Of a DNA stretch of 5,163 nucleotides, positions 495-5,163 are shown piece after piece. This DNA is from a virus (lineage: Duplodnaviria > Heunggongvirae > Uroviricota > Caudoviricetes). The position numbers and the translations under genes are program-made. Position 1 is the stretch's first letter. Each line of letters begins with the position of its first letter. Location of the stretch: IMG/VR virus record IMGVR_UViG_2667527792_000002. One strand, written 5' to 3'. The notes under the pieces are model-generated. The model did not search any database. It had not been told where the DNA came from and was given only the letters and a program-made list of their open reading frames with translations.

Positions 495-592
495 TGACCA
501 CTTTTACCGACAAAGAACTGATTAAAGAAATTAAAGAGCGTATCAGCAGCCTTGNCNTGNGNNANNATNTTGAAATCTTAAGGGTAAGATAA
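494..592 (+). other. Short coupled ORF (about 32 codons, MTTFTDKELIKEIKERISSL...) interrupted by ambiguous bases; possibly a truncated gene
   Basis: ATG at 494 overlaps the TAA stop of the preceding ORF (TAATG). Frame runs through the N-containing stretch 555-570 and stops at TAA 590-592, so the reading is unreliable. Confidence 0.2.
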
Positions 593-675
593 AAGGTCAT
601 TAGACAGAATGACACGTTTTATTAATAAATAAAGCTATTGTTTCATTCGTGTGTTTTTCTTTACAAAAGTAATCC

Positions 676-704
676 TTGCTATGGTTGGTTAATCATGCGT
701 TAAT
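676..704 (+). promoter_or_regulatory. Putative sigma70 promoter for cspI (-35 TTGCTA 676-681, 17-bp spacer, -10 GTTAAT 699-704) with AT-rich UP-like region upstream
   Basis: Hexamers resemble the cspA promoter (TTGCAT / CTTAAT). A start near 711 would give a ~145-nt leader, the long 5' UTR typical of cspA-family cold-shock genes. Sequence-based prediction only. Confidence 0.3.
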
Positions 705-855
705 GGTGTTCTGGTTTGTTACAAAATTATCTGAAGCAGTCATTGTTATAATTTTATTATTTGTACCTCTTGAGATTTCCTTGTTGGTTTTTCTCTCTGA
801 TATTTTTTTTCGGACCATTCTGCCCAAGGGCTAACTTCTTCAAAAGGTAATAATG

Positions 856-1068
856 ATGTCTAACAAAATGACTGGTTTAGTGAAATGGTTTAACCCTGAA
901 AAAGGTTTTGGTTTCATCACGCCGAAAGATGGTAGCAAAGATGTGTTTGTGCATTTCTCAGCTATTCAGAGCAACGATTTCAAAACGTTAACTGAGAATC
1001 AGGAAGTCGAATTTGGTATTGAGAACGGACCTAAAGGCCCTGCAGCTGTTCATGTAGTGACACTTTGA
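856..1068 (+). CDS. cspI: Cold-shock protein CspI (CspA family, 70 aa)
   Basis: Translation [70 protein letters not shown] has the RNP1/RNP2 cold-shock motifs and the [14 protein letters not shown] signature I recall for CspI of the Qin prophage. AAGG RBS 8 nt upstream. The ORF track starts one codon earlier (853); the second ATG matches the known N-terminus. Confidence 0.9.
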
Positions 1069-1272
1069 GGTAGAAAATATTACAAACCATATTCACTTTA
1101 GATGCCCGTGTTGCCATGGTTCTCAGTATAGAACATCATCTTTTGATGTTTCTGACAGAAATCCTTTCGGGGCAAAATGTATCTTTTGTAAATCAATGAT
1201 GATTACATTTGATAATATTTCACAATACTTAAATGTTAGCCATCTGTCGTTAGATTTAAGAAAGTGAAAATG

Positions 1273-1298
1273 AAGGCTCCTTCGGGAGCTTTTTTGCT
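1273..1298 (+). terminator. Rho-independent terminator candidate (stem GGCTCC / GGAGCT, UUCG loop, then TTTTTTGCTT)
   Basis: Hairpin at 1275-1290 followed by a run of six T. About 200 nt downstream of the cspI stop. The opposite strand also has a U-rich tail, so it may act in both directions. Confidence 0.5.
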
Positions 1299-1339
1299 TA
1301 GTGTCTAGTCGATGGATACTCACATATTACGGTAACATT

Positions 1340-1570
1340 ATGAAAAAAATAATAGTTTTTTTTAACTCTGAACCAGCAATGGTAGTGCCAGTGATGACCG
1401 GAGTTAACACCATCATGCGTGAATATCCAAATGGCGAAACAACACACCTCACTGTAATGGCTGCAGGGTTTCCATCTCTGACCGGAGATCATAAAGTCAT
1501 TTATGTAGCAGCGGATCGACATGTAACTTCAGAAGAAATTCTGGAAGCAGCAATGAGACTCTTGAATTGA
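1340..1570 (+). CDS. Small hypothetical protein (76 aa), possibly YmcE/YnfN-like
   Basis: ORF MKKIIVFFNSEPAMVVPV...EAAMRLLN from ATG 1340 (the track's 1301 start is a GTG inside the terminator tail). Weak RBS. It sits between cspI and a gns gene, as ymcE does in the cspG-ymcE-gnsA locus; the similarity claim is positional and by size, not sequence-verified. Confidence 0.45.
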   Translation: MKKIIVFFNSEPAMVVPVMTGVNTIMREYPNGETTHLTVMAAGFPSLTGDHKVIYVAADRHVTSEEILEAAMRLLN

Positions 1571-1742
1571 TTTGATTCTAATGCATTGATAATAAATGAT
1601 AATCATCTTTATCTGTTTGTGTGAAATTTAGACCGTCGTATGTTGATTATTGCGATGTTTCATCTTATCTTTTATACGTTTGCTCCATATAATTGACACT
1701 ACTGTGTACCAGGACAGTCATAACAGACTAAAAGAGGAAATG

Positions 1743-1916
1743 ATGAACATTGAAGAGTTAAAAACAAAAACAGAAGCAGATATTTCTGAATATATAACAA
1801 AAAAAATCATTGAGCTTAAGAAAAAGACCGGGAAAGAAGTTACCAGTATCCAGTTTACTGCACGGGAAAAAATGACTGGTCTTGAAAGCTATGATATCAA
1901 GATTGATTTAATCTAG
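1743..1916 (+). CDS. gnsB: GnsA/GnsB-family protein (57 aa)
   Basis: MNIEELKTKTEADISEYITKKIIELKKKTGKEVTSIQFTAREKMTGLESYDIKIDLI matches the Gns family (conserved TAREKMTGLESYD). AGAGGA RBS upstream. The track's longer ORF from 1650 is an upstream extension without RBS support. gnsB rather than gnsA is inferred from the prophage context next to cspI. Confidence 0.75.
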   Translation: MNIEELKTKTEADISEYITKKIIELKKKTGKEVTSIQFTAREKMTGLESYDIKIDLI

Positions 1917-1978
1917 CATGTTTATAGTATTAGCATCAATTTCTCATCAGATGCTATTCAACAATACAAATTATCCAT

Positions 1979-2006
1979 AAACCTCGTTTTTACGGGGTTT
2001 TGTTAT
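1979..2006 (+). terminator. Possible intrinsic terminator downstream of gnsB (stem AAACCUCG / CGGGGUUU with one G-U pair, then U-rich tail)
   Basis: Hairpin at 1979-2000 followed by TGTTATATTT. Part of the U-run is used in the stem, so this is weaker than the 1273-1298 candidate. Confidence 0.35.
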
Positions 2007-2211
2007 ATTTAAACATTACCGAATAGATATAAATCTCGATTGTCGATGGTATTGGTTGTGTGACAATACCTAGTCTTTCCGGTATGCCTGAAGAGAATAC
2101 AAACGACAGATTATGTAAGGGAAACGCGCTGAAACTTTCACTCTTTCATGCTGAGTGATTTGACGTTATATTTTTAGCCGCAAGTGAAGAGCAAACGAAT
2201 GGAGCGACAAA

Positions 2212-2418
2212 ATGCATAAAGATCAATACACTGATGCCCCCTCCCAGGAGCAGGTTCGTGTAAAAACTATGCTTAATAGCACCATTTCGATGGGTTACCC
2301 GGATGTTGTAATTGCATGTATAGAACATCAAGTATCTCTGGAAGCATTCAGGGCAATTGAGGCCGCGTTAGTAAAGCACGATAAGAATACGAAGGATTAT
2401 TCCCTGGTGGTTGACTGA
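2212..2418 (+). CDS. Hypothetical small protein (68 aa), prophage moron
   Basis: [43 protein letters not shown]... with GGAG RBS about 7 nt upstream of the ATG. No family recognised. Confidence 0.45.
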
Positions 2419-2781
2419 TCACCATAACTGCTAACCATTCTGACCATTTCACAAGTGACAGAGTCAATATCGTATTCTGTCACTGTAATGCTAATACAGT
2501 ACTGCAATTCAACTACAGCAATGCCTCGTATTTAGGTGAATTTACAATATCGTCCAGTTCGGATGCCGGCTGCATTTCTGAAGATAAGGCATTTCGGTTC
2601 GCGTATTTTCCCCTCATGCTCGTCAGTCCTGCGCGTAGTAAGAAACAGGACACTCACACTAATTTGTGTGAGCATGCTGTGATGTCCTTCTGAATTATCC
2701 CCATGCCATTATGTAACGCTCTGTTTCAGATGCTCGTCACGGTTGTCAGGCTGTCGGGTCCTCCCAGTGGGGGTCCCTGCC

Positions 2782-2801
2782 ACGGGGCGGGAGCGTCGCG
2801 G
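2782..2801. other. cosN-like cohesive-end site of a lambdoid phage (ACG|GGGCGGGAGCGT|CGCGG)
   Basis: GC-rich island in AT-rich DNA. Compared with lambda cosN (ACG GGGCGGCGACCT CGCGGG) it shares the ACG flank, the first six bases of the 12-nt overhang and the CGCGG flank. It lies about 196 bp upstream of the small terminase start; lambda cosN is about 190 bp from Nu1. Confidence 0.5.
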
Positions 2802-2847
2802 AAAAAGACTAGTTTTTGCATTTCCATGGCGGCGGCAGCATGTTTGG

Positions 2848-2860
2848 TAATTTATTGATA
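2848..2860 (-). promoter_or_regulatory. IHF-consensus-like site (WATCAANNNNTTR on the minus strand) within the putative cosB
   Basis: Plus strand TAATTTATTGATA matches the reverse complement of the IHF consensus. Its position between cosN and the direct repeats parallels lambda I1. Such matches are common in AT-rich DNA. Confidence 0.25.
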
Positions 2861-2877
2861 ATTAAAAGTTATTTCTC

Positions 2878-2964
2878 TTTTCACCTGTACAATATTTTTT
2901 TCTCCCTGTCATTAGACCAGTTTGCAATTAATTGAAATATATAAATAAACCTGATTTTCACCTG
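2878..2964 (+). repeat. Two 10-bp direct repeats TTTTCACCTG (2878-2887 and 2955-2964), candidate small-terminase binding elements (cosB R-like)
   Basis: Exact 10-bp repeat 77 bp apart, the second ending just before the small terminase start. Spacing from cosN resembles lambda R2 and R1. A 10-bp perfect palindrome CAATTAATTG (2925-2934) lies between them. Confidence 0.4.
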
Positions 2965-2980
2965 CCAGATGGAGTTGCTT

Positions 2981-3508
2981 ATGTCAAATGTGAGCGGGAT
3001 CGGTGATGCTTATTACTGGAGTGTTTTTAAAATCGCCGAGGCCTTTGGGCTTCACCGGGACACAGTAAAAAAACGGCTCCTCGCGGCCAACACTCCTGTG
3101 GCTGCGACTGTCAGGGGGAACCCCGTTTACGCCCTGCAGCATGTCGGGCCCGCCCTGTTTAGTGTGAAGCATGAGGCAGCAGACTCTGTTCATGATCCAT
3201 CCCGTATGGAGCCGAAAGAGAGAAAGGACTGGTACCAGTCTGAAAATGAAAGGATCAAGCTGGAAAAGGAGCAGCGAAAACTCATCCCAGTTGATGAAGT
3301 AGTCATCGTCTATTCGTCCATGAGAAAGGCTGTCGTCCAGGTTCTGGAGACAATTCCGGATGTTCTTGAACGCGATTGCGCCCTGACTCCTCAGGCCGTC
3401 GGCGTTGTACAGCAGGCCATTGATGACCTGCGATACACTCTTCAGGAAAAATCCTACGAGGCTTGTGCTGCTGAATTAATTCCTGATGAGGAAGGAGAGA
3501 GTCTCTAG
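2981..3508 (+). CDS. Phage terminase small subunit (Nu1-like DNA-packaging protein, NohA-type), 175 aa
   Basis: ORF immediately upstream of a gpA-family large terminase and downstream of a cos-like site. N-terminal HTH-like segment (IAEAFGLHRDTVKKRLL) then a charged coiled-coil-like middle, the same layout as lambda Nu1. Start placed at ATG 2981 (GGAG RBS at 2971-2974) rather than the track's 2969. Confidence 0.65.
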   Translation: MSNVSGIGDAYYWSVFKIAEAFGLHRDTVKKRLLAANTPVAATVRGNPVYALQHVGPALFSVKHEAADSVHDPSRMEPKERKDWYQSENERIKLEKEQRKLIPVDEVVIVYSSMRKAVVQVLETIPDVLERDCALTPQAVGVVQQAIDDLRYTLQEKSYEACAAELIPDEEGESL

Positions 3509-3516
3509 GAGGAATA

Positions 3517-4962
3517 ATGGGTTTTTCATCAGCCCGAAATTTGGGAAGGGACATATCGGCAGGATTTTCCCCACCACGTCGCATGCCGATTTCGGAGGCT
3601 GTTAAAAAATTCATGCGTGTTCCCAAGGGGGCTGGTAACTCGGTGCCATGGGATCCTGAACTGACACCCTACATCATTGAGCCCATGAACTGCCTGGCAT
3701 CGCGTGAATACGATGCGGTGATTTTTGTTGGTCCTGCGCGAACAGGGAAGACCATTGGTCTGATCGATGGATGGATTGTCTATACCATCGTTTGCGATCC
3801 TTCGGACATGCTCGTTGTGCAGATGACCGAAGATAAGGCCCGCGAGCATTCTAAAAAGCGCCTTGACAGAACGTTCAGAAGCAGTGCGGCGGTAAAGAAA
3901 AGAATGAGTCCACGTCGTAACGACAATAATGTCCATGATAAGACGTTCAGGGATGGCTCGTTCCTTAAAATTGGTTGGCCCTCGGTCAATATTATGTCGT
4001 CGTCGGATTACCGGTTTGTCGCCTTAACCGATTACGACCGTTTTCCGGAGAATATCGACAGCGAGGGTGATGGTTTCTCCCTGGCCTCAAAACGTACCAC
4101 CACATTTATGTCCGCCGGGATGACTCTGGTGGAGAGCTCGCCGGGACGTGACATCTGCGACAGCAAATGGCGACGTAAGTCGCCTCATGAAGCGCCACCG
4201 ACGACTGGTATTCTTTCCCTTTACAATCGTGGTGACCGCCGCCGCTGGTACTGGCCATGTCCGCACTGCGGTGAATATTTTCAGCCAGCTATGGATGCCA
4301 TGACCGGCTACCGTAATGAACCGGATCCCTTTAAAGCCAGTGAGGCGGCGTATCTACTTTGCCCGCACTGCAGCGGCATTATCACTGCGGAGAAAAAGCG
4401 TGAGCTCAATAGTGCAGGAGTCTGGTTGCGTGAAGGTCAGGTCATTGATCGTAACGGCAACGTTTCCGGTGAACCGCGCCGCTCCCGTATCGCCAGTTTC
4501 TGGATGGAAGGGCCAGCTGCTGCGTATCAGACCTGGGCGCAACTGGTTTACAAATTACTGACTGCAGAACAGGAGTATGAAGCGACAGGAAGCGAAGAAA
4601 CACTCAGGGCGGTTATCAACACCGACTGGGGATTGCCTTATCTTCCTCGTGCCAGCATGGAGCAACGAAAAAGTGAACTGCTTGAGCAGCGGGCAGAGCC
4701 AGTTCCTTCCCGCAGTGTTCCGGATGGCGTTAATTTCCTTGTGGCGACAGTGGATGTGCAGGCGGGACGTCATCGCCGTTTTGTGGTTCAGGTAACGGGC
4801 TATGGCAGCCGTGGCGAACGCTGGATTATTGATCGTTACAACATCACGCAGTCATTGCGCAGTGACTGCGACGGGGATACACGGGCGGGACCATCGGGAT
4901 GCAGCGTTCCGAGCAGGGTTATATTCCGGTGTCAGGTCATCTACAACGCCAACTGGCGCTGA
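3517..4962 (+). CDS. Phage terminase large subunit, lambda gpA family, C-terminally truncated (likely non-functional)
   Basis: AGGAGG RBS overlapping the upstream stop. Walker A-like VGPARTGKT, and [12 protein letters not shown]...LLCPHCSG resembling the lambda gpA Cys/His motif. About 450 residues of phage homology versus 641 in lambda gpA. After about 4860-4877 the frame reads through host ansA sequence out of frame to TGA at 4960-4962. Confidence 0.8.
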
Positions 4963-5163
4963 TGCCGGAATTCCATCGCCCGGAGATGCCAGATTTCACC
5001 ATTCATGAATATACGCCGTTGATGGATTCTTCTGATATGACGCCGGAAGACTGGCAGCATATTGCTGAAGATATTAAAGCGCACTATGACGACTATGATG
5101 GTTTTGTCATTCTACACGGTACCGACATGATGGCGTATACCGCCTCTGCGCTGTCGTTCATGC
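4899..5163 (+). CDS. ansA: L-asparaginase I (ansA), 5'-truncated; native start codon and first ~9 codons absent; continues past window end
   Basis: Frame-0 translation from 4878, [40 protein letters not shown]...[16 protein letters not shown], is near-identical to E. coli AnsA residues 10 onward as I recall them. Upstream in frame is a TGA at 4863-4865 with no ATG/GTG/TTG before the ATG at 4899 (native Met16). A product starting there would lack the catalytic Thr14 of the TGGT motif. Confidence 0.75.

Follow-up and report, generated by a model that had tools for sequence, protein, structure and literature searches.

The Qin prophage of Escherichia coli K-12 carries the gene series cspI-ynfQ-ynfR-ynfN-gnsB (b1552-b1550). 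The same genes, in the same order and orientation, are found in the window, i.e., the whole stretch of 5,163 nucleotides analysed here, and an Rz-type lysis module flanks the cassette in its complete-genome match as it does in Qin. CspI, YnfQ, GnsB and the C-terminal 51 aa of YnfN are 93-99% identical between the two prophages. However, ynfN is frameshifted and encodes 51 aa in K-12 (T7 run), whereas it is intact and encodes 76 aa here (T8 run). Conversely, a TAG shortens ynfR to 12 codons here. The 3' flanks also differ, with a 68-aa phrog_657 gene and DUF1441/gpA terminase genes here and a ydfO/ynfO/nohA remnant in K-12.

A second K-12 locus, cspG-ymcF-ymcE-gnsA, is paralogous to this cassette (about 80% amino-acid identity between CspI and CspG, about 68% for ymcF/ynfQ and 65% for gns). 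Both loci have a hairpin terminator after ymcF or ynfQ, and a conserved block and a Shine-Dalgarno sequence before gns. The cspG locus differs in that it lacks ynfN, while its YmcE has no detectable similarity to the 76-aa protein and its ymcE overlaps both neighbours and shows zero protein-level constraint. The preliminary description of the window saw in it a mirror of cspG-ymcE-gnsA. This holds for csp, ymcF/ynfQ and gns, whose positions are paralogous, but not for the middle genes, which are not homologous according to BLASTP, tblastn and NCBIfam models. The lambdoid cassette CSD-YmcF-like-YnfN-Gns of Citrobacter is comparable in its four genes, in its slot between Rz (DUF2514) and terminase, in its 76-aa YnfN (72-74% identical) and in its Gns (84-89% identical), but it precedes a Nu1-type small terminase subunit instead of a DUF1441-type one and its spacers have diverged.

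Toxicity of GnsA is a claim reportedly made by Wei et al. in 2015. The proposal, mentioned in the preliminary description, that YmcE-GnsA forms an antitoxin-toxin-like pair is indeed found in the literature, since ymcE-gnsA appears among E. coli type II toxin-antitoxin (TA) systems in two publications (PMC8484670, PMC6265476), both citing Wei et al. 2015. According to two studies (bioRxiv 10.1101/2024.03.27.586906, PMC10607373), which both refer to Sugai et al. 2001 for Gns, overexpression of K-12 GnsA/GnsB leads to more unsaturated fatty acids and suppresses fabA6 and secG-null. Mutants short of unsaturated fatty acids grow again when they carry gnsA or gnsB on a plasmid, and gnsA expression brings back 16:1/18:1 levels (bioRxiv 10.1101/2024.03.27.586906). 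ASKA clones of gnsA and gnsB rescue the growth of fadR relA mutants, and that of gnsA rescues the growth of lapC190 (bioRxiv 10.1101/2024.03.27.586906; PMC10607373). The molecular mechanism of Gns action is still unsettled (PMC10607373). As for ynfN itself, next to nothing was found in published work.

Type II TA operons such as relBE and yefM-yoeB resemble the ynfN-gnsB part of the cassette, as they consist of two small same-strand neighbours on a mobile element; in addition, the family of the downstream gene is here labelled "toxin" in Pfam. They differ from it in several respects: here, a long spacer with a promoter-like block separates the two genes, YnfN has no recognisable DNA-binding antitoxin fold, the co-occurrence of ynfN and gns is not obligate and, according to published work, several mutants benefit from overexpression of the "toxin" family.

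Gene content and genomic context of the cassette

Positions 570-4877 of the window have an exact counterpart (100% identity) in a prophage that E. coli ATCC 43896 carries in its chromosome. The whole window is a composite, which leaves 570-4877 unaffected. On the identical DNA, RefSeq annotates the lysis genes essD, ydfR, rrrQ and rzpQ, then cspI, ynfQ ("cold shock small protein YmcF"), a pseudo-ORF labelled "too short", ynfN (76 aa, WP_000720960.1) and gnsB, followed on the 3' side by a 68-aa hypothetical gene, a DUF1441 protein, the terminase large subunit and a portal gene. The ORFs of 76 and 57 aa of the preliminary description were both found where it had placed them, at 1340-1570 (+) and 1743-1916 (+), and this placement is right since RefSeq annotates the identical DNA as ynfN and gnsB. 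Judged by this annotation and by the purifying selection on ynfN (see below), both ORFs are true genes and not chance ORFs.

The cassette has an A+T content of 65%, compared to 47% for the terminase genes, which fits an acquired accessory cassette. The separate AT-rich region that had been noticed upstream of each of the two genes is not distinctive, as the spacers have 60% and 69% A+T in a cassette of 65%. The 76-aa ORF had also been described as following cspI; cspI does lie upstream, at 856-1068, but not directly. Three features overlooked at that stage, ynfQ, a ynfR remnant and a hairpin terminator, all lie between them.

The cspI gene (856-1068, + strand, 70 aa) encodes a cold-shock protein (Pfam CSD, 1.6e-31; RefSeq annotation of the identical DNA), which is 98.6% identical in a tblastn search to the csp protein of the gnsB-type locus of the K-12-like E. 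coli ECDA1023. The segment 698-1114 (+), which comprises its leader and coding region, matches the cspA thermoregulator model over its full length (Rfam RF01766, model positions 1-428; 107.4 bits for a gathering score of 78, E 1.4e-27), as is typical of a CspA-family cold-shock unit, in which such a leader precedes a CSD protein. Next comes ynfQ (1079-1267, +), annotated by RefSeq with an ATT start, which encodes a 62-aa ymcF-like small protein with a CxxC...CxxC Zn-ribbon. YmcF/YnfQ was detected by tblastn in all gns loci (66-100%), and the Citrobacter orthologue of ynfQ matches Pfam YmcF-like. The ynfR remnant (1270-1308, +) has 12 codons, a TAG replacing codon 13 of K-12, where YnfR has 21 aa and is strongly induced by cold shock (PMC6001520).

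Between ynfQ and ynfN, a hairpin with a UUCG loop is followed by a U6 run (1272-1295, +; -12.4 kcal/mol, z -2.3), forming a putative intrinsic terminator or attenuator; the YnfR reading frame runs through it. An equivalent stem and U-run recurs in all lineages, among them four Citrobacter loci and the cspG locus of K-12, but the stem sequences differ. Csp proteins themselves were reportedly described as antiterminators by Bae et al. in 2000. This activity is also mentioned in a study of K-12 (PMC11228462), in which AZT induces cspI, ynfQ and ynfN almost equally (6.5-, 5.9- and 5.8-fold, respectively) and the dependence on SspA is 38-, 42- and 51-fold.

A PADLOC search gave no matches for YnfN, GnsB, YnfQ or the 68-aa protein, and a role as a defence system was discarded on this basis.

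Identity of the 76-aa protein

The 76-aa protein encoded at 1340-1570 (+, ATG start) matches phrog_3425 over positions 1-76 of 76 (E 1e-55), and its residues 26-76 are 94% identical to the 51-aa YnfN of K-12. Its exact sequence bears the name "protein YnfN", and the exact 57-aa sequence that of "GnsA/GnsB family", each being found on at least 1000 contigs. This full-length family match identifies the 76-aa protein as YnfN.

It is not related to YmcE. BLASTP aligned the 76-aa protein with YmcE nowhere at E<=100; the NCBIfam scan gave no match at E<=0.01 for the 76-aa ORF, YmcE itself scoring 187 bits on the YmcE model NF007379; the best tblastn match of YmcE on the window (E 0.27) lies outside the region, which contains no YmcE-like frame; and tblastn of the 76-aa protein on the K-12 cspG locus yielded noise only. 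The 76-aa ORF was thus rejected as a YmcE homologue on BLASTP, on tblastn in both directions and on the NCBIfam YmcE model (NF007379 / PRK09891), and the length of 76 aa that it shares with YmcE is a coincidence. The homology with YmcE that had been envisaged for this ORF is consequently abandoned. The similarity searches proposed at that time gave positive results for YnfN and for GnsA/GnsB and a negative one for YmcE; a lack of similarity to YmcE/YnfN, which had been named as the outcome speaking against the idea, was found for only one half of that pair, because the ORF is YnfN and not YmcE.

An AlphaFold2 model of the 76-aa form (pLDDT 86) has five strands and a C-terminal helix, so that YnfN is predicted to be a small beta-rich protein.

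Full-length YnfN and the truncated allele of K-12

It should be noted that the K-12 reference annotation gives YnfN only 51 aa, which raises the question of whether the 76-aa ORF is over-extended, the true product starting at Met26 (position 1415 of the window). Besides this annotation, a 51-aa profile exists (phrog_4911) and a GGAG motif lies 11 nt 5' of the ATG at 1415, the ATG at 1340 being preceded by only a weak GG at about -10. However, the K-12 Qin DNA is collinear with the window through the whole N-terminal extension and the sole difference is in a T run (1356-1363, +), which counts eight T here and seven in K-12. Owing to this T7, the frame of the upstream ATG reads MKKIIVFLTLNQQW and then a stop in K-12, and the 1-nt deletion accounts for the short form of 51 aa that is left there, the upstream ATG being out of frame.

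Comparisons with other genomes also argue for the longer form. Full-length homologues of 75-76 aa are found in Citrobacter (71-74% identity) and among more distant sequences (59% and 51%). In the latter two, Met26 is replaced by Cys; more generally, distant members with Cys, Arg or other residues at this position still begin at the equivalent of residue 1. Seven N-terminal residues (M1, K3, V6, F7, F8, N9 and V16) do not vary among 13 homologues. When 1.84 billion representative proteins were searched with a profile, only 46 relatives were retrieved, and the complete ones have about 75 aa and align from position 1. The dN/dS ratio is 0.07-0.10 for codons 1-25 (three computable comparisons among five Citrobacter orthologues) and 0.08-0.18 for codons 26-76 (versus five Citrobacter orthologues). 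The first 25 codons are therefore as constrained as the rest and, by these ratios, ynfN is under purifying selection along its whole length. In the structural model, residues 2-7 form strand 1, and the pLDDT of residues 1-10 averages 89. Conservation and dN/dS led to the rejection of Met26 as the real start, and a 51-aa native product appears extremely unlikely. As judged from this conservation, the 76-aa form is a genuine conserved protein and K-12 carries a truncated allele, which could interest curators: the reference YnfN of 51 aa is the frameshifted version of a conserved family of 75-76 aa associated with cold-shock genes.

The gnsB gene and its upstream region

The 57-aa ORF was presented as GnsB-like in the preliminary description, and it is gnsB. 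The gene (1743-1916, +) encodes a protein of the GnsA/GnsB family, whose residues 1-54 cover positions 1-54 of 54 of the Pfam profile PF08178 (GnsAB_toxin), with 114.5 bits for a gathering cut-off of 27 (2.1e-33). The protein is 93% identical to K-12 GnsB and 65% to GnsA, and it matches the sequences of the GnsA crystal structures 4XO2 and 4XO1 (7.9e-20 for 4XO2). A Shine-Dalgarno sequence, AAGAGG (1732-1737, +), which is invariant in all loci, precedes the start codon with a spacing of 5 nt. On the 3' side, a putative intrinsic terminator (1979-2010, +) with a 9-bp stem and a T-rich tail is kept in sequence in K-12 Qin.

About 65-100 nt upstream of gnsB, a block TTGATTATTG ... TTTATA (1643-1678, +) is conserved upstream of gns genes, its columns being nearly invariant in loci of both gnsA type and gnsB type. 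It could include a sigma-70 promoter, with TTGCGA (1650-1655) and TATACG (1673-1678) separated by 17 nt, or TATAAT (1688-1693) as an alternative -10 element. The block was not called by a simple promoter scan, which detected no + strand site in the two spacers and no more sites than expected from shuffled sequences. For the gns leader of 14 loci, RNAalifold predicted just 3 pairs, with -1.2 kcal/mol and zero compensatory changes, and a conserved RNA structure or thermosensor in this leader was discarded from this result. As the leader is conserved as primary sequence, a promoter or binding site appears more likely than an RNA structure.

Distribution of the cassette in genomes and phages

With one genome taken for each GTDB species, 25 gns loci were obtained in all, and each was searched for the neighbouring genes. 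A csp gene and ymcF/ynfQ lie immediately upstream of gns in 25/25 loci, and the order csp-ymcF/ynfQ-[ynfN or "ymcE"]-gns fits them all, except for one (L027) whose slot holds neither ynfN nor a ymcE-like stretch. The slot between ymcF and gns is occupied by ynfN in the Escherichia gnsB-type loci and in most Citrobacter loci, and by a ymcE-like stretch in the Escherichia cspG locus, with a partial one in Citrobacter sp. NCU1. In Citrobacter prophages, the genes for CSD, YmcF-like, YnfN (76 aa) and Gns proteins lie between DUF2514 (Rz) and a Nu1/gpA terminase. Furthermore, YnfN and GnsB occur together in seven phage records (phages 2H10, mEp460, HannyBb, Tritos, PhiR63_1 and PhiR42_1); in phage 2H10, the cassette lies close to the end of the record, after an Rz-like spanin gene.

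The cassette thus shows the features of a phage "moron", being located between lysis and packaging genes, with a distinct base composition and its own terminators, and being present in isolated phages. The series cspI-ynfQ-(ynfR)-ynfN-gnsB is a conserved phage accessory ("moron") cassette occupying the Rz-terminase slot of lambdoid phages and prophages of Escherichia and Citrobacter.

Members of the ynfN family are also found in loci devoid of gns. In an enterobacterial chromosome, ynfN follows csp-ymcF and a second paralogue of 80 aa lies upstream of csp (L004-L008); in phage PHB10, it follows a cold-shock gene. Other family members are divergent from a CSD gene (L048) or from a YnaE gene (L044), or occupy the slot between Rz and terminase in a different type of prophage (L045/L046). 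The occurrence of ynfN without gns beside csp, CSD or YnaE genes indicates that its steady companion is a cold-shock gene and not gns. The small proteins encoded 3' of distant YnfN homologues were considered as cryptic Gns relatives and turned out to be unrelated, one of them being a CxxC zinc-ribbon.

The ymcE reading frame of the cspG locus

The K-12 cspG locus has a gap of just 195 nt between ymcF and gnsA, and the ymcE annotated there overlaps each of these genes. At the DNA level, the 5' end of ymcE aligns with the 3' end of ynfQ and its terminator, and its 3' end matches the DNA that precedes gns in ynfN-type loci (64% over 173 nt in C. braakii). The ORF includes the conserved hairpin and U-run that follow ymcF, and the block TTGATTATTG...TTTATA that is kept upstream of every gns gene. 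E. albertii, Escherichia sp. MOD1-EC7003 and one E. coli strain have lost the K-12 start codon of ymcE, this E. coli strain also having an in-frame stop, and the ymcE of Escherichia sp. E1V33 carries a frameshift.

Selection on ymcE was analysed by four pairwise comparisons within Escherichia, with 6-18 substitutions each. These substitutions are spread evenly over the codon positions (5/8/5, 1/3/2, 5/5/0 and 1/5/1) and dN/dS is 0.84-1.4; between E. coli and E. albertii, the ratio is 0.02 for gnsA, 0.12 for ymcF and 0.07 for cspG. The overall divergence of the ymcE region is about 8%, compared to 24-43% of synonymous divergence in the neighbouring genes. The most economical reading is that this region is kept as regulatory DNA, i.e., terminator plus gnsA promoter or leader, and not as a protein; because the genomes are few and the counts small, this reading is a lead and not a proof. 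The absence of protein-level selection on ymcE and its coincidence with the terminator and the gns block suggest that the "addiction module toxin" label, which is passed on to every Gns protein, is weakly grounded. The ymcE ORF is widely listed as the GnsA antitoxin and its coding status appears doubtful, which could be of use to curators.

Relationship between YnfN and GnsB

Considering all these data, ynfN and gnsB are probably separate, already annotated genes, the last two members of a phage cold-shock cassette that would work as proposed below, and probably do not constitute a TA module of the YmcE-GnsA type. It had been suggested that the window holds a prophage-borne paralogous cassette for cold adaptation or of TA type. 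The cold-adaptation content is present (cspI with its thermoregulator leader, ynfQ/ymcF and GnsB), but the spacing of the genes and their independent occurrence speak against the TA part. Under such a TA interpretation, GnsB would be the toxin of a type II-like pair in which the 76-aa protein would be a non-homologous substitute for the YmcE antitoxin. This is in line with the label that Pfam and RefSeq give to the family ("GnsA/GnsB toxin / addiction module toxin"), with the type II listings of ymcE-gnsA (PMC8484670, PMC6265476), with a TA survey in which the partner of GnsAB_toxin is always upstream (PMC10790755) and with the small same-strand ORF upstream of gns in most gnsB-type loci. Yet, unlike in a tight operon, the spacer between ynfN and gnsB measures 172 nt and contains the block conserved upstream of all gns genes. 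Moreover, the two genes do not strictly co-occur, as gns is found without ynfN in gnsA-type loci and L027, and the ynfN family is found without gns. K-12 has a truncated ynfN beside an intact gnsB, YnfN shows no recognisable antitoxin fold (RHH, HTH, AbrB, Phd/YefM, HicB...) and the supposed archetypal antitoxin, YmcE, is itself devoid of protein-level selection. Lastly, overexpression of gnsA or gnsB is tolerated and even beneficial (bioRxiv 10.1101/2024.03.27.586906, PMC10607373). A TA pair therefore seems quite unlikely.

YnfN and GnsB could also be functionally coupled in another way, YnfN modulating Gns, for example, or both acting on a common lipid or membrane target during cold adaptation. 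Indeed, most gnsB-type loci of Escherichia and gns loci of Citrobacter have the two genes side by side, as do all seven gnsB-carrying phage records. In one distant species, genes of the YnfN and gns families lie 2.6 kb apart in a stress-gene island, amid HSP20 and Mn-catalase genes. However, each of the two genes also occurs independently and the csp, ymcF and ynaE genes are steadier neighbours of YnfN, so that such a coupling, although conceivable, is rather doubtful. A bolder proposition would make YnfN the true Gns partner, a new non-homologous neutraliser or modulator within an ancestral csp-ymcF-ynfN-gns cassette, the YmcE "antitoxin" being an annotation artefact over the ymcF terminator and the gnsA promoter or leader. 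This proposition is unlikely as a whole; if it were true, the database entry for the Gns toxin-antitoxin system would have to be recast with YnfN at its centre, and K-12, the reference strain, would be a natural hypomorph for ynfN.

Proposed functioning of the cassette

In the preferred reading, that of separate genes in a cold-shock cassette, the cspI promoter and its cspA-type thermoregulator leader would ensure cold- or stress-induced transcription of cspI-ynfQ. A part of the transcripts could pass the hairpin and U-run at 1272-1295 into ynfN, and antitermination by CspA-family proteins may assist this passage. The gnsB gene would be expressed at least partly from its own promoter within the conserved block, with transcription ending at the terminator 1979-2010. 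By analogy with K-12 GnsA/GnsB on overexpression, GnsB would increase the share of unsaturated fatty acids. At low temperature, the lysogen could thus gain RNA chaperoning from CspI and membrane fluidisation from GnsB; YnfN, for its part, travels with cold-shock genes of the csp/ymcF type and not specifically with gns. If these steps take place as proposed, the cassette would be a lysogenic-conversion module aiding the membrane and RNA metabolism of its host in the cold. As it is carried by viable lambdoid phages, it offers a case in which cold adaptation conferred by a phage can be tested.

This Qin-type cassette is found in thousands of genomes. Reference annotations already contain its genes, their order and their paralogous relation to the cspG locus, and the finding itself adds little to them. 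The truncated ynfN allele of K-12, the doubtful ymcE and the repeated association of YnfN-family genes with cold-shock genes could together be of use to curators.

As regards the transcription of the region, co-transcription of ynfN and gnsB by read-through may occur. On the minus strand, promoter-like sites are present at 1625-1596 and 1602-1575, antisense to the 3' end of ynfN, in a number that is within the expectation from shuffled sequences (6 found, 8.1 expected).

Length of YnfN and the K-12 allele

The 76-aa ORF at 1340-1570 (plus strand) is ynfN, whose conserved product is 75-76 aa long, whereas the reference YnfN of E. coli K-12 has only 51 aa. This latter is a 5'-truncated allele resulting from a one-base deletion, the run of eight T at window 1356-1363 being reduced to seven in the K-12 Qin prophage (L003 4137-4184, minus strand). 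Of the beta strands predicted for the conserved form, the first two are missing from the K-12 protein. On the minus strand, within 1575-1625, two sigma-70-like matches that overlap each other (TTCACA/18/TATCAT, 10 of 12 positions; TTATCA/16/TAGAAT, 9 of 12) are directed antisense at the 3' end of ynfN; across the region, the total of promoter-like sites does not exceed that of shuffled sequences.

The preliminary description placed this ORF after cspI. The order is right, but two unlisted elements, ynfQ and a remnant of ynfR, lie in between (1079-1308). ynfQ (1079-1267) has an annotated ATT start and encodes a 62-aa protein with a zinc-ribbon-like CPCC...CIFC pattern. The remnant is limited to 12 codons and stops at a TAG where K-12 ynfR has TAT, which gives in that strain the cold-shock-induced YnfR of 21 aa.

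Coding status of ymcE and the conserved block upstream of gns

The ymcE ORF of the K-12 cspG locus (L002 2848-3078), listed as "antitoxin of GnsA", was compared with its counterparts in L029, L030, L033 and L034. Its dN/dS ranges from 0.84 to 1.4 and its substitutions display no third-position bias. In four Escherichia lineages with an intact gnsA, the ORF is disrupted by loss of the start codon, by a new stop or by a frameshift. Furthermore, the ORF overlaps both the terminator hairpin of ymcF and a conserved block upstream of gns. The ymcE ORF may not be a protein-coding gene.

This block, TTGATTATTG-N(about 18)-TTTATA (window 1643-1678), is kept upstream of all the gnsA-type and gnsB-type genes, with equivalents in the loci L003, L009 and L019-L034. 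No conserved RNA structure was found at the block, which could serve as a promoter for gns or as a binding site for a protein.

Genomic neighbours

Cold-shock or stress genes are recurring neighbours of YnfN-family genes in otherwise unrelated contexts. Two YnfN-family paralogues lie on either side of csp-ymcF in the enterobacterial locus L004 (5037-5279 and 6001-6228). Other members are divergent from a YnaE gene (L044) or from a gene encoding a cold-shock domain (L048), and one island (L041) combines a YnfN-family gene with HSP20, Mn-catalase and gns genes.

Between gnsB and the DUF1441/terminase genes, the window carries a 68-aa ORF of unknown function (2212-2418; phrog_657, 4.6e-48) conserved in other Escherichia loci. 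The record of phage 2H10 ends within this ORF, at the equivalent of window position 2317, which reflects either an arbitrary linearisation or a phage genome end (cos) inside the ORF.

Composition of the window

The window is a composite of segments with different best matches. Positions 1-554 match another prophage segment, from the yfdR/yfdT neighbourhood (99.6%); after a run of N-containing bases (555-570), positions 570-4877 are 100% identical to the prophage of E. coli ATCC 43896, and positions 4878-5163 match the chromosomal ansA (99.7%). Neither junction is spanned by any complete E. coli genome, which points to joins made in scaffolding or by misassembly, or else to a remnant that has been rearranged. 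Because of this composite structure, the large-terminase ORF at 3517-4962 is an artificial fusion of 481 aa. The first segment encodes a DUF551 protein of 120 aa (132-494; phrog_583, 1e-81), after which begins a yfdT-like ORF that is broken by the N-run.
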